Numbered from the stretch's first letter, positions 4,338 through 54,242 are shown. The stretch is 64,000 bases of DNA from Marinicella sp. (GCA_965230295.1 OZ246001.1:3712001-3776000); one strand, 5' to 3'. Made by a program: numbers and translations. The notes: generated by a model not told the origin, from the sequence alone.

Positions 4338-7300
4338 CCAGACGCATCATCAAAGTACTGTTGGGAACCATATTATTGGTGTTATTGGTGGTTGGTATGT
4401 TGTTGGTGACCGTTTTGTATACACAAACTGGTAGTAGGTGGGCCATCAACCTTGCTTTGGGAGACGAAGTCAGTGTTCAAGGTATTGAAGGCACTCTGGG
4501 CAGTGAACTTAATATTCAAAACATTCAATTACAAGTGAATGGATGGCATATTGATGTATTGGGGTTTCGATATCAATTGGAAGACATTCGTTGGTTCTAT
4601 CAAGGAATTTCCTTGGTTCAAGTAGAAATGAAATCAGTCCACATTAAACAACCAGTGGTCACAGGTGAACCAACTGATACAGATCAGTTTGATGGCTTTG
4701 ACTTACCCGTGGCTGTTGAGATTGCAGAATTAAATATTAAAGAATTGGTGTTCATAGACCCGGAATGGAGCGAAAAGGTAACGAACATAGCCACTTCGAT
4801 TCAAGCCAGGAAAGGCCAAATATTCATTGAAGATTTAGTTGTAAATCACCCGAATCTGTCATTGCAAGCCACAGGCTCATTGGGGTTAGGATCTGAACTG
4901 CCGGTCAACATGCATGCACATTGGGAACTGAAGACCAATACCAATCATGTTTCTGGTGATGGCAGGTTAACAGGAGACATGAATCAGTTGTCTATAGATC
5001 AGGAAATAGAGCTGCAACATCAACAGTTACATGCCCCTTTAACAGTGCGAAGTAATGTGAATCTTGAAGAACAGTGGCTGGAAATAACCGTTAATTCGGA
5101 TGCTTTTAATATTAACTTGTCAGATCATGGCCAATCTGAATTGACTGATGTGCAACTGAAACTAGATGGCTGGGTCAATGATTACAGCTCCAATGGTCAA
5201 TTCAATTGGCATGCGAATCAGATTGAATCAGCACTGATCAAGTTCCAAGCAAACGGCAATAAAACCGGCATAGATATCCATTCTCTTTCAGCACATTGGG
5301 GTGATAGTAGCTTGCAGGTACCATCTGAACTGACTTGGGATGCAGGTGCTATTAGAATAATCTCTCAACTTCAATTGATTGATTTCAACCCTGATATGTT
5401 AATTGCTGGTTGGAGTGGTCAGATCAATGGTCAGGGTCAAATCAGCGCAAACTTAAGTGAAATGACTGAAGTGGTGCTGAGTGACTTGATGCTAGAAGGA
5501 AGTCTCAAAGAACAGCCATTCAGTCTGAACACGGCAGGCCAGCAAATGGGACAGACGTGGCAGATCACGCCTTCAACTTTTACTTTAGGCCACAACAAAG
5601 TGAGTTTTGAGGGCGCTTTGAGTGAAAACGATGTCGATGTGAATTTCAGATTTGATCTGGAAGATTTGTCTGGGTTAAGCAGCGATTTAAACGGTGGTAT
5701 TTCTGGGCAACTTGATCTGTCAGGCCCAATTAGAGCAGTTTCCTTGAAGAGTCATATTCAGGGGGATCATTTGAGATATTTTGACCATCAGGTCAATGAT
5801 ATTGACATCAAAGCTGAAGGCATGTGGCCAAATGATATTAAAATCATAGGTTCAACTGGTTTGATAAAGACTGGCCAACAGCAGTTCAATCAGTTTACAT
5901 TCTCTGTGAACGGGACAACCACTCAGCATCGATTACAAGGTCGATTGTCAGGTGATGATGTCAGTAGTGCCTGGAAAGTGATGGGTGGATGGGATACTGT
6001 GAGCAAACAATGGCTTGGTAACATTCAAGAGCATTGGTTTGAGTGGCATACAATTGATCAACGATGGGAGTTATCTGAACCTGCTCAATTAGAACTTGGT
6101 CTTTACAACGCCTTGAGTGAATCGTGTTGGTACACTGCGGATAATGATTCATTTTGTCTCAGTGCCACTTCATATCCAAGTGACTCACAGCACTTAGCCA
6201 AAATCACCATGAACCAAATGAACATTGGACTATTTAGTCCATGGCTGCCTCCTGATTTAAGGGTCTCTGGGCATCTGCAAGGGCATGCAAACCTCAAGGT
6301 CCAATCTAGCACGATCCGCCTTGAATCGGATATTCAGCTCAATAACGGGATGCTACTTTATGCTGAAAACAGTGACAATCCCTACATCACAGACATCACA
6401 GGTGCTCAGCTACTAGCCACCCATGAAGGAGATTCCTCTAGCATTGAAGCCAATGTGACATTAGCAGATGGTTCGTTCTTGCTAAGTAAAGCCAATGTTA
6501 ACGTTAATCAGCAGGGGGAAATTGAGCTGAATTCGACTTTAGCTGGGACAATGCAAAAGTCTCGATACTTGGCTTCGTTGATTCCCCAGGTTGCGACCAT
6601 ACAAGGAAGCCTGGAACTTGAGGGAAATACCAAAGGGGCGGTTACAAAGCCACAAATTGATTTAACGATTCATCAACCCGATGGACATTTAACCCTGGCT
6701 CAAACCGGAACACGCATTGAAAACAATCGCTTTAAACTCAGTCGCCAAGGCTCGAGTCCAGCTGACTTCTCATACCAAGGAAAATCAGGAGATGGAGAAT
6801 TAAACATATCAGGACAATTGGATTGGGGTAAAGCAAATGGTTGGCAGATTAATGCTCATGCTTCAGGCAGACAATTCCCATTGCTGAACCGTCCTGAAAT
6901 CTCTTTAACCGTATCCCCTGAGGTGACGATACAGGCTGATGCTGAGCAAGCGAACATCACAGGTAAAATGAACATCAACCAGGGCAGAGTAGAAATCAAA
7001 CAACTGCCTGAAGCAGCCATTGAAAGCTCGCCGGATGTGGTGGTTCATAGGTCTAAGGAAACTGAAGTTGACACTCCTTATCAAACATATTTCAACATCC
7101 AAACCCAGATCGATGATGTGATGAAAATCGACGCTTTGGGTCTGGTAACGGATCTTTCAGGGGGGTTACGAGTAAGCAATCACAATGCAAACTCTTCAGT
7201 GAATGGATATGGTCAATTAAGCTTGAATAATGGCACCTACAAAATATATGGCCAATCTTTACAGATCAACCAAGGTAATTTAATGTTCAATGGCCCAATC

Positions 7301-8112: not shown

Positions 8113-8541
8113 TTAGACATTAATTATGTCTGGAATCTTATCTTTGGTTCTTGAGGCATCCGCAGCAACCCTTTTCGAAATAATATTGGCACTTGAATCA
8201 TATGATAAAGTCCCGGTATATTTACGAGTAACTTTCAGTATTCTGTTTCTGCTTGCCGGGTTGTCCAGTTTGAGGTATTTATATCTGTCATAGTTACATT
8301 TTGGCAAGAACCTCATCATATATCTTGCTACAGGGATTGGTATTTCACCAAGCATCCTGAATCTGCCAATTCTGTGAAGTGTCTTGATATGAACCAGAAT
8401 TGCAAGTCTTGCCATTGGTTTCCTTGCTGCTTTTAATGCGAAGTCTATCTCATTTTGGGAAGGCTGGAAATATAACTCAATCTCCTTGTTAGTATAAGAT
8501 GCCTTTAAATCCCTGTAAGCTGTTTCGTTAGCTGCCGTCAT
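8113..8541 (-). pseudogene. tnpA: Truncated Tn3-family transposase (N-terminal DUF4158-type region only)
   Basis: MTAANETAY..L...F.P...EI.FA..R....RLA.LV..K....GRF..DIINV then stop; 142 aa of a roughly 1000-aa protein. Confidence 0.8.
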
Positions 8542-8590: not shown

Positions 8591-8627
8591 GTGGTAATGA
8601 CCACATAGGTGTAAGAACGGACATTTG
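8591..8627 (+). repeat. Tn3/Tn4651-like terminal inverted repeat, copy 1 (degenerate GTGG start)
   Basis: GTGGTAATGACCACATAGGTGTAAGAACGGACATTTG, near-identical to the reverse complement of the units at 10401 and 12176. Confidence 0.85.
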
Positions 8628-8946
8628 ATTATAAAAATAGCAGAATAAACAGTCTTTTATTAAATGGGTAGATACCTCATAACTGCAAAATTGGGTATCT
8701 GCACTCTGCAATTAATGACCAGTCTAAAAAAACAAAATAGAATAAAATAAGGTTTCAGTAACATTTTGAACCAGTATGTTGAGCTGTTTCTTTTTGTATC
8801 AATTTTGTTTTAATTTGTTTCATGCCAAATATATCTATTAACAAAAATTATAGGATGTGACCCAGAAGGTGAGAATAGTTTTAAACCATTAAAGTTTTGT
8901 TTACATGGTTTTTTTGTTTTTTTGATGATTTATCACAGGAATTTAT

Positions 8947-10338
8947 ATGAAATTAAAACGTATTCACCTTTTGTTTCTTTTATTTTTTTCTCAACATTGC
9001 ACAGCTGTAAATATTTCTTATTCAGGAGATGGAGAAGTTTTAATTTTTCCATACTATACCGTAAATAATGGATTAAACACCTTGTATACAGTTGTAAACA
9101 CCACGCCGGATACCAAAGCATTGAAGGTTCAATTTTTAGAAGGAGATAACTCCCTTGAAGTTCTTGATTTCAATGTCTACTTGTCAGCATACGATGTTTG
9201 GACAGGTGCTTTAATACCATCAATATCCAATCATGCTGGTCACGTTGGCGAACCTTCGGCTGCTCACATTACCTCTGATTCTTCTTGTGCCCCTTTCTTG
9301 GTTAAAGCGCCTGCTACTCAAGAACTCTTGCCATTTACTATCGACACTGACATTGCAGCGTCAAACAGAAACATGCTTCGTGTAAGAGAAGGTCATATAC
9401 AGATAATTGAAATGGCCACATTCACCGGATCTGCAGTTGATTGGGCAGATCATGGTACTCATGGAGTGACTGTCGGTTGTGGCCATATTCTAGGAGATTT
9501 GGCTGATAATGGAATGTGGGATTCTGGTGGAGAAGAAAGTCCAACAGGTGGGTTGTTTGGATCTGCATCATTGATTGATGTGGCTCAAGGAATCAACTAC
9601 ACGTATGATGCATTGGCCTTGGTCAACTTTTGGCAAGGAAACGCCTATCATACACCACCTGGTGACCTATTACCTAACATCAGTGATGCATACCCAGAGT
9701 CCAAAATATTATTGGATTCTGGCGAAGTTGTTACATCACAATGGAATACAGGTTTTGAAGCGGTCTCTTCAGTATTGATGAGCGCTCATGTCAGGAATGA
9801 ATACGCGCTTGAACCTGCAGCGAATGGACAATCTGAGTGGGTGGTGAGTTACCCAACCAAGCGGTTTCATATTGAAAACGAACACAAAGCCCCTTTTGTT
9901 TCTGACTGGGATGGCAATGAAGCATGTGAAGATTTGAATATTCTTATATTGGACAGAAATCAACAAAGAGAATTCGATTGGACATGTGGTGTTCTATGTC
10001 TCCCAGACGATTACGGACCAAAGCTATGCCATTCTGGCAATGTGGTAGAGTTTCTACTACCTGGTTCCACTGCTGAACAGTCATCTCGTGTTTTGGGGTC
10101 AAGTAACCTACTGCAAGTTACTACACCATCTAATGCAAGTACCCAAAGTGGCTGGGCATTGATTGATTTCCTTGATAATGAGCATATTTTGTCATCTTTA
10201 GAAGGCAACCTGTTCTATGGGCTTCCAACCATTGGCTTTTCGGTTCAAAAATACACCAACGCTCAGGCTGGGGATGGATTGCTGGCGCAGTATGGAGGGG
10301 CTTTTAGTCATAAATTAAAAATGGAAGTTGAGCAATGA
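8947..10338 (+). CDS. Secreted cell-surface/S-layer-like protein
   Basis: Signal peptide; GEVLIFPYYTV..NT...VVNTT..KALKV.F.EG.NS.EVLDFNVYLS.YDVWT; C-terminal GLPTIGF. Confidence 0.7.
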   Translation: MKLKRIHLLFLLFFSQHCTAVNISYSGDGEVLIFPYYTVNNGLNTLYTVVNTTPDTKALKVQFLEGDNSLEVLDFNVYLSAYDVWTGALIPSISNHAGHVGEPSAAHITSDSSCAPFLVKAPATQELLPFTIDTDIAASNRNMLRVREGHIQIIEMATFTGSAVDWADHGTHGVTVGCGHILGDLADNGMWDSGGEESPTGGLFGSASLIDVAQGINYTYDALALVNFWQGNAYHTPPGDLLPNISDAYPESKILLDSGEVVTSQWNTGFEAVSSVLMSAHVRNEYALEPAANGQSEWVVSYPTKRFHIENEHKAPFVSDWDGNEACEDLNILILDRNQQREFDWTCGVLCLPDDYGPKLCHSGNVVEFLLPGSTAEQSSRVLGSSNLLQVTTPSNASTQSGWALIDFLDNEHILSSLEGNLFYGLPTIGFSVQKYTNAQAGDGLLAQYGGAFSHKLKMEVEQ

Positions 10339-10400
10339 GCCTCAGGGTTAGGTGTTTAGTATACAGAGAGCTATCACACCTAGTTGGGTTCTGTTCTTTA

Positions 10401-10447
10401 GGGATAATGCCAAATGCCCGTTTTTACACCTATGTGGTCATTACCCC
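10401..10447 (-). repeat. 47-bp double-ended Tn3-like end unit, copy 2
   Basis: GGGATAATGCCAAATGCCCGTTTTTACACCTATGTGGTCATTACCCC. Confidence 0.88.
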
Positions 10448-10504
10448 TTTATTAAGTATTTCAGCAATCATTCAATCTAACTTCAGCAACTTTAGGGATT
10501 ACAT

Positions 10505-12172
10505 ATGAACATAAAACGTATAAAACTGGTCGTATTGGTGGCTTTTGCTTATCAATCAGCCATTGCACAATTTGACTCAACCATAAATCTATCAAGTCTG
10601 GATGGGACCAATGGCTTTACGCTAAACGGAGGCACAGTGAATGAACACAGTGGCCGAACAGTCAGCACAGCTGGTGATGTCAATGGTGATGGGATAGATG
10701 ATTTGGTTATTGGAGCTATTGACGCTGACACAAATGGTAACAGTTCAGGTGAGAGCTATGTGGTGTTTGGCACTACCGATGGATTCCTCGATACCATAGA
10801 CCTTGCTGACATTGGGGCCAGTGGTTTAACCCTAAGCGGTGTGGCAGCGAATGATCTCAGTGGTTTCTCTGTTAGCACAGCTGGTGATGTTAATGGTGAT
10901 GGGATAGATGATTTGGTTATTGGCGCTCCTGACGCAGACCCAAATGGTGACGACTCAGGTAGCAGTTACGTAGTGTTTGGAAATAGCACTGTCAATGGTT
11001 TTCCCTCTACCATAAATCTATCTGACCTTGATGGGACCAATGGTTTTACCCTAAACGGTGTGGCAGCGAATGATCTCAGTGGTTTCTCTGTTAGCGCAGC
11101 TGGTGATGTCAATGGTGATGGTGTTGATGACTTGATTATTGGCGCTCCTGACGCAGACCCAAATGGTGACGACTCAGGTAGCAGTTACGTAGTGTTTGGA
11201 AATAGCACTGTCAATGGTTTTCCCACGACCATAAATCTTTCTGATCTTGATGGGATTAATGGCTTTACCCTAAACGGTATAGCAGCTAGTGATAGAAGTG
11301 GTTTCTCCGTCAGTGCAGCTGGTGATGTTAATGGTGATGGGATAGATGATTTGATTATTGGTGCTCCTATAGATGATTTGATTATTGACGCTCCTGACGC
11401 AGACACAAATGGTGACGAATCAGGTAGCAGCTATGTGGTGTTTGGAAATAGCACTGTCAATGGTTTTCCCACTACCATAAATCTTTCTGATCTTGATGGG
11501 ACCAATGGTTTTACCCTAAGCGGTGTGGCAGCGAATGATCTCAGTGGTTTCTCTGTTAGCACAGCTGGTGATGTCAATGGTGATGGTGTTGATGACTTGA
11601 TTATTGGCGCTCCTGACGCAGACCCAAATGGTGACGACTCAGGTAGCAGTTATGTTGTGTTTGGAAATAGCACTGTCAATGGTTTTCCCACGACCATAAA
11701 TCTTTCTGATCTTGATGGGATTAATGGCTTTACCCTAAACGGTATAGCAGCTAGTGATAGAAGTGGTTTCTCCGTCAGTGCAGCTGGTGATGTTAATGGT
11801 GATGGGATAGATGATTTGATTATTGGCGCTACTGAAACAGACGCAAATGGTACCAATGCTGGTAGCGGCTATGTGGTGTTTGGAGATAGTACTGTCAATG
11901 GCTTTCCCACTACCATAGATCTATCTGGCCTTGATGGGACCAATGGTTTTACCCTCAACGGTGTAGCAGCGAGTGATGGTACTGGCTTCTCAGTCAGCGC
12001 AGCTGGTGATGTCAATGGTGATGGTGTTGATGACTTGATTATTGGTGCTCCTGACGCAGACCCAAATATTAACCCCAATGCTGGTAGCAGCTATGTGGTG
12101 TTTGGTGATGATGGTATATTTGCTGATGACTTTGATAATGACCCTCTTTTAGCAAGGAGTAAAAACCAATAA
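10505..12172 (+). CDS. Secreted FG-GAP/integrin-alpha repeat protein (7 repeats) with C-terminal DGIFADDFD motif
   Basis: Signal peptide; repeated SGFSVS.AGDVNGDG.DDLIIGAP..SYVVFG units of about 73 aa. Confidence 0.92.
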   Translation: MNIKRIKLVVLVAFAYQSAIAQFDSTINLSSLDGTNGFTLNGGTVNEHSGRTVSTAGDVNGDGIDDLVIGAIDADTNGNSSGESYVVFGTTDGFLDTIDLADIGASGLTLSGVAANDLSGFSVSTAGDVNGDGIDDLVIGAPDADPNGDDSGSSYVVFGNSTVNGFPSTINLSDLDGTNGFTLNGVAANDLSGFSVSAAGDVNGDGVDDLIIGAPDADPNGDDSGSSYVVFGNSTVNGFPTTINLSDLDGINGFTLNGIAASDRSGFSVSAAGDVNGDGIDDLIIGAPIDDLIIDAPDADTNGDESGSSYVVFGNSTVNGFPTTINLSDLDGTNGFTLSGVAANDLSGFSVSTAGDVNGDGVDDLIIGAPDADPNGDDSGSSYVVFGNSTVNGFPTTINLSDLDGINGFTLNGIAASDRSGFSVSAAGDVNGDGIDDLIIGATETDANGTNAGSGYVVFGDSTVNGFPTTIDLSGLDGTNGFTLNGVAASDGTGFSVSAAGDVNGDGVDDLIIGAPDADPNINPNAGSSYVVFGDDGIFADDFDNDPLLARSKNQ

Positions 12173-12175
12173 CAA

Positions 12176-12222
12176 GGGGTAATGCCAAATGTCCGTTTTT
12201 ACACCTATGTGGCCATTACCCC
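12176..12222 (-). repeat. 47-bp double-ended Tn3-like end unit, copy 3 (perfect GGGGTAATG/CATTACCCC termini)
   Basis: GGGGTAATGCCAAATGTCCGTTTTTACACCTATGTGGCCATTACCCC. Confidence 0.9.
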
Positions 12223-12489: not shown

Positions 12490-12516
12490 GTTCCACAAAC
12501 GACCGTTTGAGTGACA
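12490..12516. promoter_or_regulatory. Probable resolvase-binding (res) subsite
   Basis: CAAACG-AC-CGTTTG palindrome directly upstream of the resolvase ATG. Confidence 0.5.
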
Positions 12517-12518
12517 CT

Positions 12519-13133
12519 ATGAAAATTGGTTATGCAAGAGTTTCAAAAGCAGATGGTTCTCAGCAACTTGATCTTCAAATTGATGCACTGATAGAAGATG
12601 GGGTTAATAAGAAGCAAATTTACTCAGATAAAGCTTCAGGGAAACTTGATGAAAGACCTGGTCTTGAATCTTGTATTAAAGCATTAAGGAACGGTGATAC
12701 TTTGGTTGTATGGAAACTAGATCGACTCGGAAGAGATTTAAAACATTTGGTGACGACTGTTCATTCACTATCAGAGCAGGGCATCGGATTTAAAGTTTTA
12801 ACAGGGCAGGGGGTAAATATTGACACAAGCACGCCTTCAGGAAAACTTGTCTTTGGAATTTTCGCATCGCTAGCTGAATTTGAAAGGGAGCTAATAAGGG
12901 AAAGAACTATGGTTGGACTTAAAGCAGCAAGAGCTCGTGGCAAAAAAGGTGGAAGAAAATTCCAACTCTCAGTACATCAAGTTAAGTTAGCCCAATCTGC
13001 AATGAAGGACAAATCTACAAATGTTTCAGAGTTATGTAAAGAACTCAAGGTTTCAAGACAAACTTTATATAGGTATATAAATCCAAATGGTAGATTGAGA
13101 GAGTATGGAAAAAAAGTACTCAAAGTAAAATAG
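12519..13133 (+). CDS. tnpR: Serine resolvase/invertase with C-terminal HTH
   Basis: MKIGYARVS (catalytic Ser), GDTLVVWKLDRLGR, AEFERELIRERT, VSRQTLYRY. Confidence 0.93.
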   Translation: MKIGYARVSKADGSQQLDLQIDALIEDGVNKKQIYSDKASGKLDERPGLESCIKALRNGDTLVVWKLDRLGRDLKHLVTTVHSLSEQGIGFKVLTGQGVNIDTSTPSGKLVFGIFASLAEFERELIRERTMVGLKAARARGKKGGRKFQLSVHQVKLAQSAMKDKSTNVSELCKELKVSRQTLYRYINPNGRLREYGKKVLKVK

Positions 13134-20715: not shown

Positions 20716-21306
20716 ATGCCCAAAAGGCGAAATGTAAAAAGTAAGCAAGAAATGGCTTCAGATTTTCATGAGAGGCCCAAGGATTTTTTAAATGAGCCTG
20801 AAATGGATTTGCTACTAAAAGGAGCAAAGCAGGGGAGACATGGAATTCGTGACCACCTCATTCTACTTATGATGTATAGACATGGTTTGAGAGTCAGTGA
20901 GGCGATCAACATTAAGTTGTCTGACCTTAATTTGAAACAGTCCAGGATATGGATTAACAGATTGAAGAATGGTTTATCTGTAGAGCAACCGATCGATGGA
21001 ATTGAATTAAGGGCCATCAAAAGATACCTGAGCACAAGGAATGATAAGTTGCCATGGTTATTTATCAGTGAACGAAATCAACCATTAACCAGGCAGTCAA
21101 TAAATTACATCATAAAGTCAGCAGGTAAAAGGGCAGGGATAGGCTCCGTAAATCCGCATATGCTCAGACATTCATGTGGATATTACCTGGCGAACAAAGG
21201 ATATGACCTTCGATTAATTCAAGATTATCTGGGTCACAGAGATCCAAAGCATACAGTTCACTACACAAGGATTGCTGGAAAAAGATTTGAAGATTTATGG
21301 AGATAA
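20716..21306 (+). CDS. FimB/FimE-like tyrosine recombinase
   Basis: HGLRVSE (R), RLKNG (K), HMLRHSCG (HxxR), LGH, VHY catalytic Tyr; 196 aa. Confidence 0.92.
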   Translation: MPKRRNVKSKQEMASDFHERPKDFLNEPEMDLLLKGAKQGRHGIRDHLILLMMYRHGLRVSEAINIKLSDLNLKQSRIWINRLKNGLSVEQPIDGIELRAIKRYLSTRNDKLPWLFISERNQPLTRQSINYIIKSAGKRAGIGSVNPHMLRHSCGYYLANKGYDLRLIQDYLGHRDPKHTVHYTRIAGKRFEDLWR

Positions 21307-22466: not shown

Positions 22467-22630
22467 CATGGGCATACAACTAAAGTGCGAAATCTCATTA
22501 ATTTCTAAGCCATTGATTTTGTTGAGCATGATGAAATTAATTTACAACTAAAGTACGCAACTTTCTCAAATTTCATCAGGAAAGCGGGGCAGGTATGGCA
22601 TTACAACTAAAGAGCTGAACTTATTGTCCA
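22467..22630 (+). mobile_element. Tn7-like left end with damaged terminus (element lies to the right)
   Basis: CATGGGCA then spaced TACAACTAAAG sites at 22475, 22543, 22602. Confidence 0.8.
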
Positions 22631-22817
22631 TTATTCATTAATGATTATGCATGGTTATGTAATTGGATAGGGTAAGGAGAGCCAATAATAAAAGCCTGTT
22701 TCTATTGCCTTTGCACATCAATTTCACCTGCTTTAGAAAATTTTTACGTCTGGCTAAACCGTCGAAATTAAAAACGATAAACAAGTAACGCAGTGGTGAT
22801 CGAATTGAGCTCCTTTT

Positions 22818-23360: not shown

Positions 23361-23448
23361 AACAACTAAAGTACGCAACTTTTTAATTTCTATCGAAGCA
23401 GTAAGGGTAGGGGTGACTTTACAACTTAAATGCTGAGTTTATTGTCCA
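23361..23448 (+). mobile_element. Partial second Tn7-like left end (inner two sites only)
   Basis: AACAACTAAAGTACGCAACTTT and TACAACTTAAATGCTGAGTTTATTGTCCA, 59 bp apart as at 22543/22602. Confidence 0.75.
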
Positions 23449-23755
23449 TTTTCTTAATAAATCACCATAACCATTTTAAACTTCTTGTTTTCTTTAATTT
23501 ACTAATGAAATTCGACCTTCTATTGTGTTGAAATTAACTTTTTGACAAGATTGAATATATTAATTACGTGTATATAAAATAGAAATTTAACTATTATTAA
23601 AAGGGTGTTTGACTTTAAAGGCCATATCCCAATTACACATTATATATCCATTTTCTAGTAAGTCTCAGGTTTATTAACGTTTAAGGCTTACAATATATCG
23701 TTTACTTTTAAATATTAAGCTATATAATTAGGAAAGGAATCTATAATGTGCAAAA

Positions 23756-27300: not shown

Positions 27301-29210
27301 GCTTCCCAATTCTTGAGGCAAGTAGACAAGCTACATTTAAAATAAACGGACTGTGTTTCAAGGTTATAAGTGGAACGGATGAAAGTCCTGAACACTGTTA
27401 CAAGATTCCGTCTCGCAGCATTAAACCAAATTTTATGGGTGAACAATTACAAAGCTATATTCCTGTCAACGCAACACCACAGGACATTGATAACGATGCT
27501 TATACTGTAAAAACAAATGGAAATTTAATGAAGCTCTGGGGTAACAGTTGGAAAAAGCTCCCAACCAACTATACAGTGACACCAAATACTGAACTTGAAG
27601 TGGAGTTTAAATCCACACTTACAGAACCTGAGTTTAGTGGTGTTGGTTTCATTCACAATGGACAGTCAAATTTATCTAGCACCAGATTTTGGCAATTTTA
27701 CGGTACTCAATCATGGGGTAAACAAGAACATAATGATTATAATTCTGGATCTGGCTACAAGACATACAGAATTAAGATAGGTGATACGTTTACTGGACAA
27801 ATCTCTCACATGGTTTTTGTGACAGACAATGACAATCAACAAGCCGGTCAAAATGTAGTTTTTCGATTGCCTACTTTAATGGAAGGTTCAGGGTCAAGTC
27901 CTTCAGGAACATTAACGTCCACCAGCCCTTGCTCTTTAACTGGTACAAATACCTACTGTGATGTCACCTTAAGTGTTCAAAAGCAAGACACACCTTATTC
28001 CTGTATATGGAAAACGGCTCCTACACTGCAATTGGTTTCTTGTACTTCTGCGGACAGTTGGAATACCAATTGGCAATGGACCAATGTCAATGGACATACC
28101 ATGCAATTACGAGCTCATGACACAACACCACAGAGTGACCCAGGTTGGCCAGGAAATATGCAGACTTTATTCAATGCAGCTCCATTATTGGATGAAGAAG
28201 TTGTTGTTGCTCAACCAGCTGGATCAAATGCCTCTGGGTCACTAACTTCAAACAGTCCTTGTACTTTAATTGGAACAAATACTTATTGTAATGTCACTTT
28301 GAGTGTACAAAAACAAGACACGCCATATTCTTGCATATGGAAAACAGCACCGACACTACAGTTATTTTCTTGTACTTCTGCAGACAGCTGGAACGCCAAT
28401 TGGCAATGGACCAATGTCAATGGTCACACCATGCAATTGCGGGCTCATGACTCATCTCCTCAGAATGATCCAGGTTGGCCTGGAAATATGCAAACTTTAT
28501 TCAATGCTGCACCATTATTGGATGAAGAGGTTGTTGTTGCTCAACCAGCTGGATCAAATGCCAGTGGTACATTAAGTTCAAACAGCCCATGTACTTTGAC
28601 TGGAACAAACACCAGATGTGATGTCACGTTGAGTGTACAAAAACAAGACACTCCATATTCTTGTATATGGACATCAGCTCCATCAATTCAATTAGTTTCT
28701 TGTACTTCTGCTAATAGCTGGGACACCAATTGGCAATGGACCAATGTCAATGGACACACCATGCAATTACGGGCTCATGACACAACCCCTCAGAATGACC
28801 CCGGCTGGCCTGGTAACATGCTAACTTTATTCAATGCTGCTCAATTATTGGATGAAGAAGTCGTTATTGCTCAACCAGCTGGATCAAATGCAACAGGTTC
28901 AATGACTACTACTAGCCCCTGTACATTAACTGGATCAAACACGAGATGTGATGTAACTATTGATGTTCAAAAACAAGGCACTCCTTATTCTTGTATTTGG
29001 AAAACATCACCTACATTGCAATTGGTTTCTTGTTATGCAGCAGACAGCTGGACTACCAACTGGCAATGGACCAATACAGGTGGTCACACCATGCAATTAA
29101 GGGCTCATGATTCAACTCCACAGAACGATCCAGGTTGGCCTGGAAACATGCAGACTCTTTTCAATGCTGCTCCATTATTGGATGAAAAAGTAGTGATTGC
29201 TGTCCAGTAA
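24327..29210 (+). CDS. Large secreted multidomain trypsin/V8-like serine protease with four C-terminal 110-aa repeats
   Basis: Signal peptide MRYLFLFFFISFTSNA; triad motifs VTNAHN, QDYGAI, GQSGSP; beta-rich middle domains. Confidence 0.75.
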   Translation: MRYLFLFFFISFTSNASQLLKPEAFSWEELVELQKDVINNFDDHYLSPQCFSTLESYNGLKRSLTIQTILWKTYVWETYDMPDKYNCIVLYENYEKSNQSHKVLTIEESKSLLSASKGFKFKEKGLYEFSNHINTYNQSTYKSLNRSKTNVDVDYNNKNVFVSDEYTSVKFPLTSAREIGNTVNTQVEKNGYVLSVDHNQTFLYPYNNIVLTQSEHAACNQFGEWSAFMVQWNVSVTNAHNIYTGCQFASFLQQQVSAHLDQNVRLTHYPIMVAANAQVANNYLLNPIAGNNQDYGAIRYYQSFFNPFYIGLTTNLGFQKGDRIRNIGYPMQSVPNNLGMKEDFADYTPLIGGGYNLPQVVFDKRPNNRVWPGQSGSPSFRNNESNAFGMVTLEIIGTDGLGVINGFTPNQVTDILSWMSWNPTGIISYPNNPVQNSTYNLVEVPEFLATVTPINNYRMDGTIEESNKNLEDLITWTSSIDGEFGTGGSVTEEELKTSLSGGWHFITTKIDSNGEQAESNVFINIIKPSGQFTSSGFCIVDLGSSQTNSCQLNITWSVSNTPATSVVWNETTNTEFATGNNGGKSYTATTNTTTFKLYPSDEKIILLDTINAQAKVPTGELTVPSAQCSLQPSPIAPDGTMRNPKATPPGCGTELSWSNVQWASPSIFYRPATGGPWQLLYQVPCQLNGDVCAGSIHTDDYATPELISTSGYEFKLVQFNDANSGNLTAPFTVTAKRFADAYEYDDGWFDLPDNLYNDLDERLLANGGTISNRVELGQTHANHNFHRPAAYDSGIDIDAFDISTSSMSVTPATQVNAKVFNMASGLDVDFEVLCVGSKRTSINAEYKVGVWELPESPTVSNTSGSGFRQITFNSVKFRDYYDGKNNYVAGFICEFNQVRVRRTTGTPGENLTYDFVASLTDQGNNPILDSVAALDPYTYKIELLGENFGTNPSVSLRDNVSGSQPIVYSSDWFHNLGTHVSTHINAGKNFIRFPILEASRQATFKINGLCFKVISGTDESPEHCYKIPSRSIKPNFMGEQLQSYIPVNATPQDIDNDAYTVKTNGNLMKLWGNSWKKLPTNYTVTPNTELEVEFKSTLTEPEFSGVGFIHNGQSNLSSTRFWQFYGTQSWGKQEHNDYNSGSGYKTYRIKIGDTFTGQISHMVFVTDNDNQQAGQNVVFRLPTLMEGSGSSPSGTLTSTSPCSLTGTNTYCDVTLSVQKQDTPYSCIWKTAPTLQLVSCTSADSWNTNWQWTNVNGHTMQLRAHDTTPQSDPGWPGNMQTLFNAAPLLDEEVVVAQPAGSNASGSLTSNSPCTLIGTNTYCNVTLSVQKQDTPYSCIWKTAPTLQLFSCTSADSWNANWQWTNVNGHTMQLRAHDSSPQNDPGWPGNMQTLFNAAPLLDEEVVVAQPAGSNASGTLSSNSPCTLTGTNTRCDVTLSVQKQDTPYSCIWTSAPSIQLVSCTSANSWDTNWQWTNVNGHTMQLRAHDTTPQNDPGWPGNMLTLFNAAQLLDEEVVIAQPAGSNATGSMTTTSPCTLTGSNTRCDVTIDVQKQGTPYSCIWKTSPTLQLVSCYAADSWTTNWQWTNTGGHTMQLRAHDSTPQNDPGWPGNMQTLFNAAPLLDEKVVIAVQ
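27895..29207 (+). repeat. Four intragenic tandem repeats, 330-bp period
   Basis: SPCTL.G.NT.CDVT..VQKQDTPYSCIWK..NWQWTN..HTMQLRAHD..DPGWPGNM..LLDE x4. Confidence 0.95.
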
Positions 29211-30754: not shown

Positions 30755-32116
30755 TCACTTACTCCGTAATTTTCTGCGCTCATATTCCAACTCTTGAGGC
30801 AGGATGACATCTATTTGCTTTTTCCTTATTGCAAGGGCTACAGGGAAGTCTACACAAGCAAGTTTTTTGATGATATTTTCTACTGTATCTTTAAACATAT
30901 TCCAACTAACAGTTTTCTTGTCTTGAAACATTTGAGCACTCCATACTATGTCATCTATGAGAGCTGATAGCTCAGCTTGCATCAATAACAAAATAATTTC
31001 ACCTGGTATCTTTATGTAAGTTTGTTGCCCTGAATTTGCACAGTTTTCAATAATCACCTTTTTGTTGAAGTTTCCATCTAGAACCACTGAATGGTTTGAG
31101 TATCGCTTGCGTAAGGCAGAAGCCAGCTGTAGTAGTTCCCACCAATAAATATTTTCACTTCTAAGGAATAACTCACCTTTACCCAAAGCAATCAAATAGA
31201 GCATCCAAGGCATGTATTCAACGCTAACTCCTTCATCTGTAATGTATGTCTCATAATCATTCAACTTATTGGCATCAAGCCGAGTTTGTTGTAGTAGAAC
31301 TTGCTCAAAATGCTTTTCAAGTATCAGTCTTTCTTTTCTTAAGTGGTCATCAGTAAATTTGAAAAGTTGATCATAAGGAACCGGTTTAACGTGACATGAA
31401 ACTGAGCTCATTTCAGGGAGCTTAATTTCCGTTATATGGGTCAATAATTTAAGCTCATTAGAGGTGAGCAAGTTCAACTGCCTCATTACTGCAAAAACCA
31501 CGGGGGATTCTGCATCAATGGCTTGTTTGTAATACTCTTGTTTAAAAAAAGGATGCTGTACACTTGATCGGCCTATAATCACTCTGGAAAGCAGCTTCTT
31601 GGCCCTGGCTTCAACGACTTGATCAACCAGTTCCAGTGCTTGGTATTCAAGCTCATTTGGATCATCATAAAACAAGTTTTTGAATTTCACATGGTAACCA
31701 CAGGTAGAACATTTCCGCAGAGCCACCTCTGAATAAGCAGACCATATTTGAAAGCATTCGGGACAACGATCCACCAGCACTTCTTTATGGACCGGGCATT
31801 GGTGAAGCCAATGACAATCAAAAGCATAGCTGTGGTAACCAGACCTCATACAACTAACGCAACATTTACTCGGCCTGTACCTTGTTTTTATGGGCTGAAC
31901 ATCACCAAAACTTTGCATTTGATTTGACTTTAAAAAATCCTGCTCAACATCACTTCCCAATCGTGCTAAGCCGTATTTACGCATGGAGGATGATTGTTCA
32001 TTATGACTTGGCTTAGATGGCTTCAAGTAAACGCCTCGATTAGCAATCATGAAGCGTCTGAATTTACCATAGCCACTTTCTCCTGGTCTTCGCATCAGTA
32101 ATCCTGTGTTAAGCAT
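30755..32116 (-). CDS. tniQ: TniQ/TnsD-like target-selector protein
   Basis: PGES N-terminal motif; CVSC..GYH..W..CPVH..L..RCPEC..CSTCG zinc motifs; last gene of the tns operon. Confidence 0.8.
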   Translation of the reverse strand: MLNTGLLMRRPGESGYGKFRRFMIANRGVYLKPSKPSHNEQSSSMRKYGLARLGSDVEQDFLKSNQMQSFGDVQPIKTRYRPSKCCVSCMRSGYHSYAFDCHWLHQCPVHKEVLVDRCPECFQIWSAYSEVALRKCSTCGYHVKFKNLFYDDPNELEYQALELVDQVVEARAKKLLSRVIIGRSSVQHPFFKQEYYKQAIDAESPVVFAVMRQLNLLTSNELKLLTHITEIKLPEMSSVSCHVKPVPYDQLFKFTDDHLRKERLILEKHFEQVLLQQTRLDANKLNDYETYITDEGVSVEYMPWMLYLIALGKGELFLRSENIYWWELLQLASALRKRYSNHSVVLDGNFNKKVIIENCANSGQQTYIKIPGEIILLLMQAELSALIDDIVWSAQMFQDKKTVSWNMFKDTVENIIKKLACVDFPVALAIRKKQIDVILPQELEYERRKLRSK

Positions 32117-33063
32117 CAGCTGACCTTCTTAACGAGGTTTTTAACCAGACCTGACACATGAATGCTCTCATGAATCATTGACCTTAACTGTTCTTCATCC
32201 TCAATTCCATAGTTGAGAAGAAAGTCAGTCAGCAGTATTCTGACCATAGCCACAAAATATTGCATGGGCCAGGACCTTAATTTCAATGGATTCATAAAGT
32301 GTTCACGATATTCTTCCCAGATCAAATCTGACAGTGATGCCAGCTTCCAGTTACCTGGTACTACGTCACTCAGAAAAAACTGTGTATATGACAAACCACC
32401 TTCTGGAAACTGACAGGTATCATATTGACTTAAGCACTTTTTAAGTTCATTAAAAGTGCGAATACCATGCAATCTGAATTCTTGAGTAAAGAATCGCCCC
32501 CTGATCAGCTCATACCTGTCTTCACTCAGGCTTTTGATCAGCTTATTGGAAGCAGCGTCGTTGCCAGCAAACAAAACAAACAAGTTGGCACCCACACCAA
32601 CTAAACCATCATAAAGCTCAGCAAAGGCTTCAAATTGGCTCACATTGAGTCTTTGTAGTTCATCAACTATTAAGACCACTTGTCTGGTACTGTTGGTTAA
32701 AGAAAGCTCGCCTAAGTGATGCAAGATCAGATTTGACATGTCATCTGCTGTGGCTTTCACTTTCAAGTCAAAATCAAGTGCATGACAAATATTCTTAAAC
32801 ACGCCGGCAATGGTTCCAACATCCCTGGGTGCCACTGATATGTATCGGGCAGGAATTTTCTCTCCTATACAGTTGGTTAACTGATTCATGATTTGCATGA
32901 GTGCCCGGGTTTTACCAATGCGGAAAGTTCCGTAGATCGCTGAGCCTGATATACCATTCCATAGACATCGGGTAATCTCATTTTTAAGTGCAGTGATCAT
33001 TGGAGTGTGGATAAAAAACTGACTGTTGTTAAAAATAGGGTGCTCTTCAAACGATGTGCTCAT
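32116..33063 (-). CDS. tnsC: TnsC/TniB-like AAA+ ATPase
   Basis: Walker A GTFRIGKT, Walker B LIVDELQ, IRGRF. Confidence 0.85.
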   Translation of the reverse strand: MSTSFEEHPIFNNSQFFIHTPMITALKNEITRCLWNGISGSAIYGTFRIGKTRALMQIMNQLTNCIGEKIPARYISVAPRDVGTIAGVFKNICHALDFDLKVKATADDMSNLILHHLGELSLTNSTRQVVLIVDELQRLNVSQFEAFAELYDGLVGVGANLFVLFAGNDAASNKLIKSLSEDRYELIRGRFFTQEFRLHGIRTFNELKKCLSQYDTCQFPEGGLSYTQFFLSDVVPGNWKLASLSDLIWEEYREHFMNPLKLRSWPMQYFVAMVRILLTDFLLNYGIEDEEQLRSMIHESIHVSGLVKNLVKKVS

Positions 33064-34928
33064 GATCGATTCCCGCCCTTAATGACATTGGCTTGCCATT
33101 TGATTTTTCTCTTTGTAAAAACCGGCGTTTGCAGCTTTGGCACATACTCATCATCATTTGATGCCACAGATGTAGATTGACTGATATCTTTTATCAGTCC
33201 TGTTAAGCTCAGAGACACTGATGGTAAGTTCTTATGAATGCGTAAATACTCAATAACCCCATGCAGCGGGTCTTTTCCAGAAATGAGCTTTTGATCAATG
33301 AGGCCCCTGATGTATTTCCTGCTATCAATGCTGTGTTTGTAAAGCTGCCATGTTCTTGGTGCTTTTAAGGTACCTAGCTTTTTGCCTTTGGTAGTAATGG
33401 CTTCAAGCTGTCTGATGTCTCTGAAATCATATCGGATGATGATGTCTTTTTTGACCATTGAATAATCAAGTACATTTGGTGCTGAATACCTCAAGTCTTC
33501 AAAATGAACATAGGGGATTCTTTTTTCTGAAGCACGCCAACAAACCTTGACTCTTCGCTCCCGGATGAATGGGTTAGGTTGATTAGAAATCAGGTGATGA
33601 TTCATTCGAATCAAACGGTTACTCATTTGGGCCTGTATCATTGATAGGGGAGAGTGACCACATAATCGATTTTGGGGTTTGTTATTATGCTGGGTGATGA
33701 TCACACTCAGAATATCTTCTAGCGCATTGACAGTAAGAATAGGGGGCTTCTTGGTGTTAATCAAAGATTCTTTTTTGGGGTCATTGGGATGTGAACCAGT
33801 AGTACACGAAAACCGATGTATGTACTTGTTGATGCGATTAAATGCATATTCAACCACATTCCTGGTCTTAGGATGAGCAGGTATACCTAACCTCATCGTG
33901 GCACCCATCTCATTGCAGATAAAATCTTTAATTGATTCAGAGTGATGGCATTGAGCATTATCCAAACTGATGGTTCCAATACCCACATTTCGATATTCAC
34001 TACCAAGGCTACTCGGCAAGCAGGACCCTGGTTCATAAGCCAAGCCAGGTGTGTTGAGTTTTCTGGGCTTCCATTCTTTATTAATGCCTATCAAGACATT
34101 CAATAAGTCATATTGCGTTGGGCTATCAGTGAAACACAGTTTATATGACAAAATACAATCTGTGGCCACATCTATAGCAACAAACAAAGTCATCCTCGAA
34201 ACCCGGTGGGGACTCATGATGCCATCAAATTCAAAGTATGCTGTAGTATGAATGTCTAAAGTCTGTGAATCAATTTGTACTTCATCATAAGCTCTGTCAA
34301 TAGGTGGCCCGACACGTACTCGACTGGTTTCGGTTCTGGGGATACTGAACTTGGCTACAAGCTTGTGAAAATACTTTCTGCAGGTTTCATACCCCAACTT
34401 TTTTTGATCAAAAGGGTACCTGTCTTTGGGCCAGTTTTGATCAGATAAATAGGCAAGAAATTGCCGGTGAAATGAGCTAGGTGTTAAGTTCTCCCCATGC
34501 CTGGCTCTTTTAACATATAGCTTCACAATTTCATTCAGGAAGTCATCGAGTCCTGGTACAGTGTCTAATAATAAGTGAAAGGAACAACGAGCACCAATGC
34601 TGTTTTTAAAATCGCTGATTGCGGCCCTTCTTTTGTCTTTATTCAGCTTGGTCATGGGGATTAATGCAGCGGTGAGAGCAGGGGGCTTATCTGCATCACC
34701 AGCAAAAGTCCTTTTCAACAGTTTAGAAACCGCAGCTGGTGAAACGTTGAACTCTCTTGCAACATCTTTCATTGAGTGACCGTTCACAACTTTAGTAACT
34801 ATCTTGATGTTTCTGATAAACAGTTCTCTTTTAGATGCTACCAATGAACATGGATCTATTTCCAACCATTCATTTACTTTTTTGTAACTAGGAGACGACT
34901 CTAGTCTTTGCTGCCAATTTAATCGCAT
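33060..34928 (-). CDS. tnsB: TnsB-like DDE transposase
   Basis: QIDSQTLD, AIDVAT.CILSY, LDNA, VVEYAF; N-terminal HTH; HNNKP..L.G.SP. Confidence 0.85.
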   Translation of the reverse strand: MRLNWQQRLESSPSYKKVNEWLEIDPCSLVASKRELFIRNIKIVTKVVNGHSMKDVAREFNVSPAAVSKLLKRTFAGDADKPPALTAALIPMTKLNKDKRRAAISDFKNSIGARCSFHLLLDTVPGLDDFLNEIVKLYVKRARHGENLTPSSFHRQFLAYLSDQNWPKDRYPFDQKKLGYETCRKYFHKLVAKFSIPRTETSRVRVGPPIDRAYDEVQIDSQTLDIHTTAYFEFDGIMSPHRVSRMTLFVAIDVATDCILSYKLCFTDSPTQYDLLNVLIGINKEWKPRKLNTPGLAYEPGSCLPSSLGSEYRNVGIGTISLDNAQCHHSESIKDFICNEMGATMRLGIPAHPKTRNVVEYAFNRINKYIHRFSCTTGSHPNDPKKESLINTKKPPILTVNALEDILSVIITQHNNKPQNRLCGHSPLSMIQAQMSNRLIRMNHHLISNQPNPFIRERRVKVCWRASEKRIPYVHFEDLRYSAPNVLDYSMVKKDIIIRYDFRDIRQLEAITTKGKKLGTLKAPRTWQLYKHSIDSRKYIRGLIDQKLISGKDPLHGVIEYLRIHKNLPSVSLSLTGLIKDISQSTSVASNDDEYVPKLQTPVFTKRKIKWQANVIKGGNRS

Positions 34929-35569
34929 AATATTACCTCTGTATCTATGTCTATTGGTTTGTCATGAGAGATGCTTAACCTACTTTGATGTATTAGTCTG
35001 TATAGTGCTATTTCATTAAGGTAAGCATTCATTCGATTATTGATCTGTACCACATCTCCGATGCGTTGTTTGGGTCTGAAATAGAACTGACCTAACAACT
35101 CTTGTTCTTGGTTGTTTGTTGAAATTTCGCTGACATTTGAAAGGGTTCTGATGATGAAAAGCATATTCCTTGCTTTTAGTTCCTGGTCAAAAACGCTTTC
35201 ATTAGTGACCACTTTGAAATCAGCATCATGCTTTTGCCTGAAATGCTCGGTTAATGGAACCACCATAGATTCATCAAATTTACCTTCTGGCTTCAGTTCT
35301 ATTACTTCACGTTTGGTTTTGTATGCCACGTAGCAATCAGGGATATATCTTTTGCCATTTACGAACAACTTAAAAGGCTGGGGCACAAATGAAATAACAT
35401 CTGGGTCAGCCTCCAATAAGGCTGCGTAGAGGAGCTCTGCCAGCGAGTGAAATATCCCAATTTGTGGGAATCTAATGAATTTTTGCAAATAGCAATCAGC
35501 ATTTTTGAGTAATTTTGATGCTGTTTTTACCTGCTGTTTGGCGATTAGTTGTCTTTGTTGAATGTGCAT
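34919..35569 (-). CDS. tnsA: TnsA-like endonuclease
   Basis: SLAE..LEADPDV..FVPQP..YIPD..IELKP (PD-(D/E)xK); GGAG precedes ATG 35569. Confidence 0.82.
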   Translation of the reverse strand: MHIQQRQLIAKQQVKTASKLLKNADCYLQKFIRFPQIGIFHSLAELLYAALLEADPDVISFVPQPFKLFVNGKRYIPDCYVAYKTKREVIELKPEGKFDESMVVPLTEHFRQKHDADFKVVTNESVFDQELKARNMLFIIRTLSNVSEISTNNQEQELLGQFYFRPKQRIGDVVQINNRMNAYLNEIALYRLIHQSRLSISHDKPIDIDTEVILCD

Positions 35570-35787
35570 AATTTGCTCCAAAATAGAAAATATGAATTTT
35601 TAAGCTATTAAAAATTCCAAAAACTTATAAAAATATAAGTTAAACCTACTTTTTTACTTATAAAAATTACAATATTATCTATAAATTCAATAACATACGA
35701 GCTTCAAGCCTATAACATGTTCTGGTAAAATACCTAACATGAAATCATATAAAAAATCGCAAGAAATGATATAAAACAAGATTAAGA

Positions 35788-45400: not shown

Positions 45401-45562
45401 TTGGAGTAAAAAGCCTACCTTGTTAACCGAGCTACCCAATGAGTAAACAAACTTTCTGTTAACGGCATTTATACAAACATAAACTTTACGTTCTTCTGAG
45501 TTGAATTTGGGAATTTCTCGGAACCTTCTTTCATGACCTTTGGTTAATATTTTATTTGTCAT
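42488..45562 (-). CDS. tnpA: Full-length Tn3-family transposase
   Basis: 1024 aa; SSSDGKK, HSTDTHGYTE..FA, FAPRIK, QLNIVE, NAIVLWN. Confidence 0.93.
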   Translation of the reverse strand: MTNKILTKGHERRFREIPKFNSEERKVYVCINAVNRKFVYSLGSSVNKVGFLLQWAYFRSKGRFFDLKKLRLRKRDITRAEMIVGALSAVDLSHYDYKTYKRHQKIILKLKGWRSFSKEYDRDLRSHASIQVDKQKSKEETIFTLINFLWGRKIEIPRFIKLESIVNDAYLKYETMIMERLSNNISLKQKIALKNLLEDPEAVNSFTEYKRISQSPANRDLNQNAKILGAIKEVFFTIKPLIKKLEITPEAVKHFSEWIYKTDLYQIKNLKNKTMLRLRLVAFVQDQFFQRQDHAVDSILRRVIRDMHQARRLEVEIKQQGEKDLHTSSVAAVATGFSAKKGFEKIEGILEDETYSSDMKVQEALMEVKSYLRELFPDFEQHATRIHEDVENSKSKLEYYLALFKLSKSMQSALSSSLKVLVFDQENSKEALYDAIASYAKSEETIEYSNHLFSAHELEHMNDDSNGYPHVTKFKVILFTHIKEAIRNKELTLKYSYKYRAHNSYFIPDEQWDKDKNEILEHVCLLKYADGEKVLDELGKDLTKTYERINRNCIEGKNKYLKISDSGKWRLIDNEPNYESTKYIPNLLSESSFKMLYELLAEIDEYTQFSECFTHHSRKHSKESIDLKLIYATLMSLGNNIGHSDMSRSTRGISKKILEQTDRNRFSLKNIRRANNRISKFIKKLPLPTLFSDANGTIHSSSDGKKVVVAVDSILANYSYKYYGREQGISVNSFVDNKHTFYHVNILTSSDREAAYMMDGIVETRASIFREGKYDYIHSTDTHGYTEPIFAGMHFLDVSFAPRIKQVNKQVIYAYETKSLRRYSDSPIAPKTKINRKLILKNWDDILRFMATIKRGDYSPSHLFKIISSSPKQNELYKAIREFGRLIKSKFILEYIDSKKLRRSIQKQLNIVELGQKLSDAVFFARKGKLFVGSQREMLKVVSCTALIKNAIVLWNYLFLSNHIHNLKTKAEKIEVIDSIRKGSVISWLHISMKGFYDFDHKHTSSFTASIKDMMNIKIYKSPG

Positions 45563-47003: not shown

Positions 47004-47408
47004 TTAATCTTTACAGTCACAATCTTGTAAAGATTTAATGATGCCACAATCGCCAACTTTTTGATTTAAGGGGCATGAATCATTGAGCATTTGTAATTGG
47101 GATTTAAGTTTTCTCAATTCCTTCATTTTGATTGTTACCAACCTGATTTGAGTATTAATGAGTTCATTGACTTCCTCACAAAATGAATCAGGATTATCTC
47201 TCAATTCGTTAATACGTTTAATGTCACTTAAGGATAAATCAAGGTGACGACAGTGTTTAATGAACTCCAGTTGATCGATGACCTTTTTATCATAGACCCT
47301 GAAGTTCCCCTCTGTTCTGCCTGCTGATCTTATTAACTTTTGAGACTCATAGTAACGAATGGTCTGAACGGGGAGGTTGGTTTTTTTGGAAACTTGTCCA
47401 ATTTTCAT
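47004..47408 (-). CDS. cadR: Cd(II)/Pb(II)-responsive MerR-family regulator
   Basis: MKIGQ..TIRYYE..RTEGNFRVY..FIKHCRHLD; Cys in FCEEVN, SCP, DCGII. Confidence 0.88.
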   Translation of the reverse strand: MKIGQVSKKTNLPVQTIRYYESQKLIRSAGRTEGNFRVYDKKVIDQLEFIKHCRHLDLSLSDIKRINELRDNPDSFCEEVNELINTQIRLVTIKMKELRKLKSQLQMLNDSCPLNQKVGDCGIIKSLQDCDCKD

Positions 47409-47416
47409 GTTTATTC

Positions 47417-47447
47417 TTGACTCTATAGTAACTATAGATATTAAACT
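47417..47447 (+). promoter_or_regulatory. MerR-type promoter/operator 1
   Basis: TTGACT, 19-bp spacer with CTATAGTAACTATAG dyad, TAAACT. Confidence 0.9.
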
Positions 47448-54235: not shown

Positions 54236-54242
54236 AATTCGC

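Follow-up and report, generated by a model that had tools for sequence, protein, structure and literature searches.

How two intact host-type genes come to lie between repeats resembling transposon ends, and whether such an arrangement can still move, is the question raised by positions 8591-12222 of a 64,000-nucleotide stretch of Marinicella sp. (GCA_965230295.1 OZ246001.1:3712001-3776000; here called the window). It comes from one contig of 4,008,074 bp, the 4.0-Mb genome of a marine gammaproteobacterium. An earlier note on this DNA had described two near-identical 47-bp units and an opposed copy of the same repeat, and had interpreted the units as ends which insert beside genes and allow their stepwise capture. 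The units and the opposed copy, the latter 38 bp long, were found in our analysis (c2, c3 and c1 in Table 1). [quoted passage not shown]

Repeats and genes of the block

The 47-mer of copy c3 (0 mismatches) recurs with 3 mismatches at c2, where 0.00 occurrences are expected (100 shuffles), and its 26-nt core is present at three places in the window, the third being 8601-8626 on the minus strand. A repeat search returned c2 and c3 as a 48-nt direct pair and c1 with either of them as inverted pairs. Read as reverse complement, the 47-bp unit starts with GGGGTAATG(G/A)CCACATAGGTGTAAAAACGG(A/G)CATTTGG, which makes up the 38 bp of the repeat and is so oriented that the outer tip lies at the right edge of the unit. 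After these 38 bp follows an inverted copy of the first 9 nt of the repeat itself, CATTACCCC in copy c3 and CATTATCCC in copy c2. The opposed copy c1 differs from the 38-mer of c3 by 4 mismatches, a tip GTGG for GGGG among them, and has no inner tip. GGGG is the outer tip of c2, c3 and of a fourth copy, c0, which lies outside the window; conservation among the copies stops at 37-38 bp.

The inner tip stands at offset 38 in both c2 and c3. A generic scan for 9-nt GGGG-tipped inverted ends is uninformative alone, with 1 in the genome and 1-4 in five shuffles. At a fixed place, 9 nt would match by chance with a probability of about 4e-6, and the tip is therefore real and common to c2 and c3 by descent. 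Two of the tips are mutated, the outer one of c1 and the inner one of c2. The homology of c2 and c3 ends at the unit boundaries, on the inner side exactly at the GGGG of the tip, and the flanks are unrelated on both sides.

Unit c2 begins 62 bp past the stop codon of the 463-aa gene and unit c3 only 3 bp past that of the FG-GAP gene, a distance for which the earlier note had given the same value. Both genes, which had been described as secreted-protein genes each standing closely 5′ of a unit, are intact, with N-termini that look signal-peptide-like by eye in the translations. The 463-aa gene has 12 matches in its own genome and matches in 57 of the 61 genomes searched (own included), often in tandem; its best paralogue shares 65% and its best external homologue 54% identity, and the named homologues come from Marinicella. 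For the FG-GAP gene, paralogues with 66-69% nucleotide identity exist elsewhere in the genome. The two genes are host-like in GC content (41.7% and 44.9%, genome 44.0%) and lie between mobile-element genes of lower GC, a transposase gene fragment (38.5%) and a resolvase gene (37.0%); from 13 to 47 kb of the window the values are 34-36%. Thus, at the border of foreign DNA, two host-type genes are enclosed by ends of the Tn3 type, and there is no sign of recent transfer. As a minor feature of the FG-GAP gene, one repeat unit at window 11360-11400 measures 246 nt against 219 nt, owing to a 27-nt internal duplication (protein ...GAPIDDLIIDAPDAD...).

One public sequencing run contains this stretch, and no RNA run with it is listed. 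Its contigs cover c1-gene-c2 and c3-resolvase with 0 differences, the run being possibly the source sample and not independent; the joint between c2 and c3 was not seen in the contigs of that single run.

Table 1. Positions of repeats and genes in the window (E values of c1-c3 from the profile of foreign family members)
Feature	Position	Strand	Remarks
NhaA Na+/H+ antiporter, C-terminal fragment, 59 aa	7837-8016	-	Pfam Na_H_antiport_1, profile positions 331-374 of 374
Truncated Tn3-family transposase gene, N-terminal 142 aa	8113-8541	-	Pfam DUF4158, E 5.3e-9
c1, 38-bp Tn3-family inverted repeat	8591-8628	+	Outer tip left, inside right; E 0.012 genome-wide
Possible second degenerate repeat	8666-8701	+	Tentative; E 0.31 with profile from this genome's own copies, no match at E<5 with foreign-only profile
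463-aa secreted-type protein gene	8947-10338	+	No Pfam or NCBIfam family
c2, 47-bp unit	10401-10447	-	38-bp repeat 10410-10447 (outer tip CCCC, right) and inverted 9-nt tip 10401-10409, GGGATAATG; E 9.9e-7
FG-GAP repeat secreted-type protein gene, 555 aa	10505-12172	+	Pfam FG-GAP, 7 stretches, E 6.8e-52
c3, 47-bp unit	12176-12222	-	38-bp repeat 12185-12222 and inverted 9-nt tip 12176-12184, GGGGTAATG; E 1.2e-5
Serine recombinase (resolvase-type) gene	12507-13133	+	Pfam Resolvase, E 2e-45, and HTH_7; just outside c3
Intact Tn3-family transposase gene	42488-45562	-	Pfam DDE_Tnp_Tn3 and DUF4158; NCBIfam NF033527, 549 bits; only PF01526 match of the genome

A family of Tn3-type ends

Within the genome, the 26-mer is found at four places when up to 3 mismatches are allowed: c1, c2, c3 and c0, which lies on the plus strand at genome position 3702111, about 10 kb ahead of the window start. 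With up to 10 mismatches, the 38-mer has six copies, of which four lie within the window or shortly upstream of it. The earlier note had named a genome-wide repeat of the repetitive extragenic palindromic (REP) type as the finding that would speak against it, and these few places in 4.0 Mb do not show such a distribution. Both plus-oriented copies (c0, c1) are without the inner tip and both minus-oriented ones (c2, c3) carry it. The two further copies, at genome positions 1629379 and 2684076, are identical to each other, and each faces an opposed, differently worded repeat (GGGGTAGTTACC...) about 395 bp away. These units at 1.629 and 2.684 Mb have the two inverted repeats of a TIME, are TIME-like, and stand ahead of a beta-helix protein gene. 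The nearest paralogue of the 463-aa gene (65%) sits ahead of one of them, and there, too, an FG-GAP gene is next.

Two side observations concern the other copies. Decayed repeats of the same family are present at genome positions 3699145-3699183 (L005:5145-5183 in our numbering of loci; E 3.2e-6, tip damaged) and 3855149-3855181 (E 0.0022), and the stretch from 3.70 to 3.86 Mb holds most of the genome's copies. Furthermore, a 1.73-kb segment occurs twice with 90% identity (genome 1628985-1630707 and 2683684-2685407; L006:6979-8707 and L007:6677-8407). It starts exactly at the tip of the GGGGTAGTTACC-type repeat, continues with about 310 bp, the opposed repeat and the beta-helix secreted-protein gene, and stops about 25 bp past the stop codon, where there is no repeat; it resembles a one-ended or a TIME-plus-gene duplication.

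Outside this genome, the 37-mer at up to 3 mismatches was looked for in 60 relatives, including 23 from the same genus, and was absent from all of them; a first pattern had no match in a collection of genome contigs. A DNA search of 43 other genomes gave one credible match (G003, 81% over 37 nt), which is part of a 603-bp element without inner tip in another Marinicella genome. A degenerate pattern covering both wordings of the repeat, run over the same contig collection, detected 80 repeats at 73 loci. According to the record titles, these come from Methylobacter, Methylomonas, Methyloglobulus, Nitrosomonas, Paraburkholderia, Pseudoalteromonas, Marinicella, several Bacteroidota and others; a few loci look like chance, e.g. 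archaeal metagenome-assembled genomes (MAGs) sharing one unrelated sequence. The consensus of the family is GGGGTAGTTACCACATAGCTGCCAAAAGTGCCATCTTCG. It is spread over Methylococcales, Nitrosomonas, Paraburkholderia, Pseudoalteromonas, Xylella plasmids and Bacteroidota, and has miniature and resolvase-only derivatives of its own. No description of it was found in the searchable literature, a search that leaves aside supplementary tables of repeats or of miniature inverted-repeat transposable elements, which may name it.

The association with Tn3 transposons is carried by the genes next to these repeats. Matches to Tn3 transposases adjoin them at 12 of the 73 loci and matches to resolvases at 17 (tblastn). 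At L085:2696-6590, a complete element of 3,895 bp was detected, with the order inverted repeat (IR), tnpR, tnpA, IR; its tnpA encodes 989 aa and reaches 893 bits on the NCBIfam Tn3 model NF033527, and the opposed repeat lies at 6590. Transposases beside family repeats form a clade with 47-76% mutual identity across phyla, and autonomous members of the family carry such a transposase together with a serine resolvase. When a repeat taken from a Nitrosomonas MAG was compared with plasmids, 27 records matched (Xylella 22, Pandoraea 3, Methylomonas 1, Nitrosomonas 1). An independent profile, built of 64 distinct foreign 40-mers only, was run over the whole Marinicella genome and recovered c0 (E 5.9e-9), the three copies of the block (Table 1) and other local copies. 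This recovery, together with the fact that the family bounds Tn3 transposons, shows that the repeats of the window are members of a family of Tn3-type ends, and the earlier note's reading of them as Tn3-family terminal inverted repeats agrees with it; the Tn3 association is one of the repeat family and not of this exact subtype.

The family has a number of short derivatives. Pairs of repeats 246-260 bp apart are found at L039, L055 and L079, the above-mentioned 603-bp unit at L046 (the locus of G003), and a 125-bp unit with a damaged left repeat at L043, by which one-armed decay is documented in this family. Target duplications are scarce: among ten opposed pairs within a locus, only the 260-bp element of L055 is flanked by one (AAGTA), and TAAAC flanks two opposed repeats on one Pseudoalteromonas contig. 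An inverted copy of the tip (up to 1 mismatch, within 120 nt inside) accompanies none of the 80 foreign repeats, and at none of the 73 loci does the family co-occur with the three secreted-protein families considered here.

Further observations were made at single loci. IR-resolvase-IR units of about 840 bp (837-847), with the resolvase gene only inside, are present at L036:2179-3025 and L056:1864-2700, and also at L057; they are much like the published TIME-RES. At L079, two miniature elements of about 248 bp (205-451 and 6351-6599) point in opposite directions; about 5.9 kb separates them, and their 12-nt outer flanks are identical. This could be a TIME-COMP or an inversion from intramolecular transposition. 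Repeat fragments (e.g. GTAACCACATAG) lie directly outside or inside full repeats at L046:5170-5200 and 5715-5760 (also L119) and at L006:6920-6985, so that elements of the family seem to land in or beside one another's ends. At L087:690 and L088:1456, the 5′ part of a resolvase gene directly adjoins a repeat's outer tip (starting with residue 7 and residue 44, respectively). A preference of the family for resolvase genes or res regions may explain these two cases, as well as the position of c3, 284 bp upstream of a resolvase gene. The sequence GGGTAATG adjoining the repeat in L053 was rejected as a coincidence and is not a repeat.

As a possible mobilising enzyme, the earlier note had named the intact transposase of the window (42488-45562). 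However, this protein shares only 20-24% identity with the clade associated with the repeats, and at the end of its gene neither a repeat of this family nor an inverted partner was found. With three transposases of the clade as queries, it was the only protein detected in the genome (21-24%). A cognate transposase is thus absent from this genome. Because of the missing enzyme and the mutated tips, we infer that the cluster is an orphan, which is probably immobile now.

Origin of the block and of the 47-bp form

The two host-type genes are bracketed by a rightward 38-bp repeat (c1) and the leftward repeats of c2 and c3. In principle, two nested units that could transpose result from this, c1-c2 (1.86 kb) and c1-c3 (3.63 kb). 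If the block is indeed a decayed cluster of non-autonomous modules, a transposase acting in trans would have assembled or moved it in the past, possibly aided by recombination among copies of the repeat. As in MICs and TIME-COMPs, c1 on the plus strand with c2 or c3 on the minus strand encloses only the 463-aa and FG-GAP genes, and no transposase gene. Packaging of genes by Tn3-type ends would then reach chromosomal surface-protein genes, beyond the plasmid-borne resistance genes and the effector genes.

The 47-bp form itself could be a collapsed miniature element, i.e. a TIME or two abutted repeats which lost positions 10-38 of one arm. With two abutted repeats (a 76-bp palindrome) as parent, a deletion from the symmetry centre would account for a break that coincides exactly with the inner boundary of the intact repeat. 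In Tn3-family repeats, the transposase-binding part is the inner one. The unit contains it only once, having one full repeat and 9 nt of the opposite one instead of the two inverted repeats of a TIME, and the inner tip would accordingly be a remnant rather than a working second end. The exact boundaries common to c2 and c3 may mean that the unit or its parent once moved as such, that the same collapse occurred twice, or that a circle recombined. In the last case, a circle with one unit and the FG-GAP gene would recombine with a resident unit, a route which has been proposed for the MITESen1 arrays. The form shows how far Tn3-type ends can shrink, and would matter more only if it were mobile.

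Several points weigh against a decayed cluster of this kind. Exact outer boundaries and unrelated flanks, common to both units, are the usual signature of a unit moved as such, and a pure-relic view must therefore assume past mobility or two identical collapses. The collapse model fits imperfectly, since the GCCA microhomology predicts 48 nt and 47 are observed. An autonomous element with the exact GGGGTAATG... subtype was found neither in the relatives nor in the contig and metagenome searches. The structure is present in one genome only, hence no cross-strain comparison is at hand, and the closest relatives of the genus share only about 50% identity in TamB, which makes a comparison with empty sites impossible. 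Finally, there is the matter of target duplications. No duplication backs an origin of c1-c2 or c1-c3 by transposition: the search at both pairs was negative, and the flanking 5-mers (ATAAA, TTTAT, AAATT) are not the direct repeats that flank MICs and TIME-COMPs. At copy c3, no direct repeat appears under any shift of +/-1. A CTTTA repeat, reported in the earlier note, can be read around copy c2; it exists only if the right end is read with three C's (CCC) and not with four, and is ambiguous. The absence of duplications weighs little either way, because only one in ten of the in-locus pairs elsewhere has one.

Among the other explanations, an asymmetric 47-bp right end of the parental element, in which the sub-terminal inverted tip was functional (e.g. 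as a second protein contact), holds up best, yet it is unlikely. Here, c2 and c3 would each mark the right end of a cassette insertion of its own, and c0 and c1 would be left ends that were never tipped. This agrees with the distribution of the tip over plus and minus copies and with the differing left and right repeats of the elements of about 395 bp in this genome. However, such a tip is missing from all 80 family repeats elsewhere, is already mutated in c2, and marks by its GGGG the exact point where the homology of c2 and c3 halts, which fits a terminus better than an internal motif.

Rather improbable is the model of the earlier note, in which the unit is a minimal two-faced end (micro-TIME), still active and inserting next to host genes, with a transposase in trans moving the segments from repeat to repeat and the array growing stepwise. 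The exact 47-bp boundaries with unrelated flanks, the possible CTTTA duplication at c2 and the position of both units just downstream of genes with host-like composition favour it, and gene capture by TIMEs in the form of TIME-COMPs is already known. However, the 47-mer, for which the note had recommended a search in the genome and its relatives, has only two copies, both in this block; further 47-bp units were found neither in the 60 relatives nor among the 80 related repeats of the 73 loci nor in two metagenome scans, one of them junction-specific and the other subtype-specific. No clean 5-bp duplication was found at c3 or at either nested unit, mutations affect c2 in its inner and c1 in its outer tip, and the genome has no cognate transposase. 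In addition, judged by Tn3 biochemistry, the 9-nt tip would be without the transposase-binding part, and ends 38 bp apart could hardly be paired on one DNA. Little credence can likewise be given to the 47-bp unit being the smallest Tn3-derived mobile element yet seen, with one transposase-binding repeat and cleavable GGGG tips on both sides. Were it so, a unit of 47 bp would hop beside genes and make transposable cassettes with any opposed repeat, and arrays would gain one gene at a time.

A very remote explanation is that the units are structural RNA or DNA hairpins (REP-like, terminators or mRNA stabilisers) merely resembling a transposon end: both stand just 3′ of genes and copy c3 folds well as RNA (-17.5 kcal/mol, z -2.5), but copy c2 does no better than shuffles (-11.2 kcal/mol, z -1.2), c2 and c3 differ at three positions, which break pairs without compensation, no terminator with a T-run was called at either unit, the genome holds six copies of the repeat type and not hundreds, and membership in the Tn3 repeat family is clear. 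From the non-compensatory differences and the missing terminator it follows that no selection for a hairpin is seen, and a REP or terminator reading was excluded by the genome copy counts, the fold comparison and the terminator scan.

For a decayed cluster of modules, the comparison with MICs and TIMEs, already drawn in the earlier note, is apt, given the inverted Tn3-type repeats around genes without transposase. The Xanthomonas MICs with Tn3-type ends (TnXax1-type) are described as forming tandem clusters, with solo repeats beside genes and neighbouring ends that can be used in different combinations (PMC4337579). Our block shares with this description the transposase-less passenger genes within inverted Tn3-family repeats, the several ends per locus by which alternative units could move, the solo repeats nearby and the placement in a region rich in other mobile genes; duplications are there reported for some units only. 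In contrast to what is given there, the repeats are GGGG-tipped and 38 bp long instead of GAGGG-tipped and up to about 97 bp, target duplications and a cognate transposase in the genome are missing, two ends carry an extra inverted 9-nt tip, and the passengers are surface proteins of host families, not effectors.

TIMEs are on record as being 209-262 bp long, and the same reports describe TIME-RES, TIME-COMPs whose TIMEs are either direct or inverted, three copies on one plasmid, and examples that lack direct repeats (PMC4133298, PMC13367494). With these, our repeats have in common 38-bp Tn3-type repeats on short non-coding units, and the repeat family as a whole has the pairs at 246-260 bp and the IR-resolvase-IR units. 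The order c2-FG-GAP-c3, with units of the same orientation around a gene, corresponds to directly oriented TIME-COMPs, and arrays of three copies are likewise recorded. The 47-bp unit differs from the TIMEs of these reports in length and in having one full repeat and 9 nt instead of two full repeats; duplications are absent here, and its mobility is only putative. Apart from the missing duplications, the block fits the known MIC/TIME-COMP kind, within which the 47-bp unit is a structural oddity.

Two other systems are similar in part. One-ended transposition is said, in the older Tn21/Tn1721 literature, to let a single repeat of a Tn3-family element start the transferred segment. The duplicated 1.73-kb segments of this genome, which have a repeat tip exactly at their start and no repeat at their end, are like its products; an active cognate transposase would be needed, and the inner tip of the 47-bp unit is left unexplained. 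Like integron cassette arrays, the block has all its genes in one orientation, with a short imperfect-palindromic unit behind each of them. Unlike in integrons, the units are Tn3-type ends and not attC sites, there are two of them only, and no IntI-type integrase is found at the array, the flanking genes being those of the truncated Tn3 transposase (8113-8541) and the serine resolvase (12507-13133). The sole Phage_integrase match among the open reading frames (ORFs) scanned is a 196-aa tyrosine recombinase ORF at 20716-21306, 8.5 kb away. The term integron-like, used in the earlier note, adds little, since tandem MIC clusters and three-copy TIME arrays have already been described.

Surroundings of the block

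The left edge of the mobile region is formed by decayed DNA, a fragment of an NhaA antiporter gene, with tamA and tamB further left. Elsewhere in the genome, tblastn matched its 59 aa only to a full paralogue at 2.946 Mb, and in the loci of 7 relatives no NhaA fragment was found within 1.5 kb of tamB. The truncated transposase gene lies outside c1 and may not belong with the repeats. The best relatives of its 142 aa are full-length transposases of 1005-1053 aa (32-34% identity); a word search for longer relatives found none; identity to the N-termini of three repeat-adjacent transposases and of the intact transposase of the window is 16-17%. An insertion of c1-c3 into the tnpA-res-tnpR spacer of one element is not supported: none of 11 loci with relatives of the fragment has a resolvase gene within 1.5 kb, and the two that were checked carry a tyrosine recombinase upstream.

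To the right, the resolvase next to c3 shares 47-50% identity with resolvases beside family repeats in other genomes. When the 4.7-kb region was compared with plasmids, its gene alone was matched (11 records, 68-72%). Five plasmid records matching a 61-nt unit at E 0.4-5 (Nostoc, Bacillus) were treated as chance, with no Tn3 context in the two regions examined.

From 13000 to 47000, the window has a low GC content (34-36% vs 44%) and many ORFs without a Pfam family. This part includes a 1637-aa protein containing a 330-nt tandem repeat in four copies (27891-29180) and, on the minus strand, a block of four genes (30755-35581) with an AAA_22 ATPase. A 46-nt direct repeat of unknown nature (22587-22632 and 23405-23450, 78% identity) starts with GGGCAGG and GGGTAGG. 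From 47004 to 61546 follow a MerR-type regulator, a cation-efflux gene and two efflux operons of the resistance-nodulation-division (RND) type, each comprising outer-membrane factor, HlyD/CusB-type adaptor and AcrB-type pump. One of the RND adaptors has CusF and heavy-metal-binding domains, i.e. metal-resistance cargo is located beside the mobile genes.

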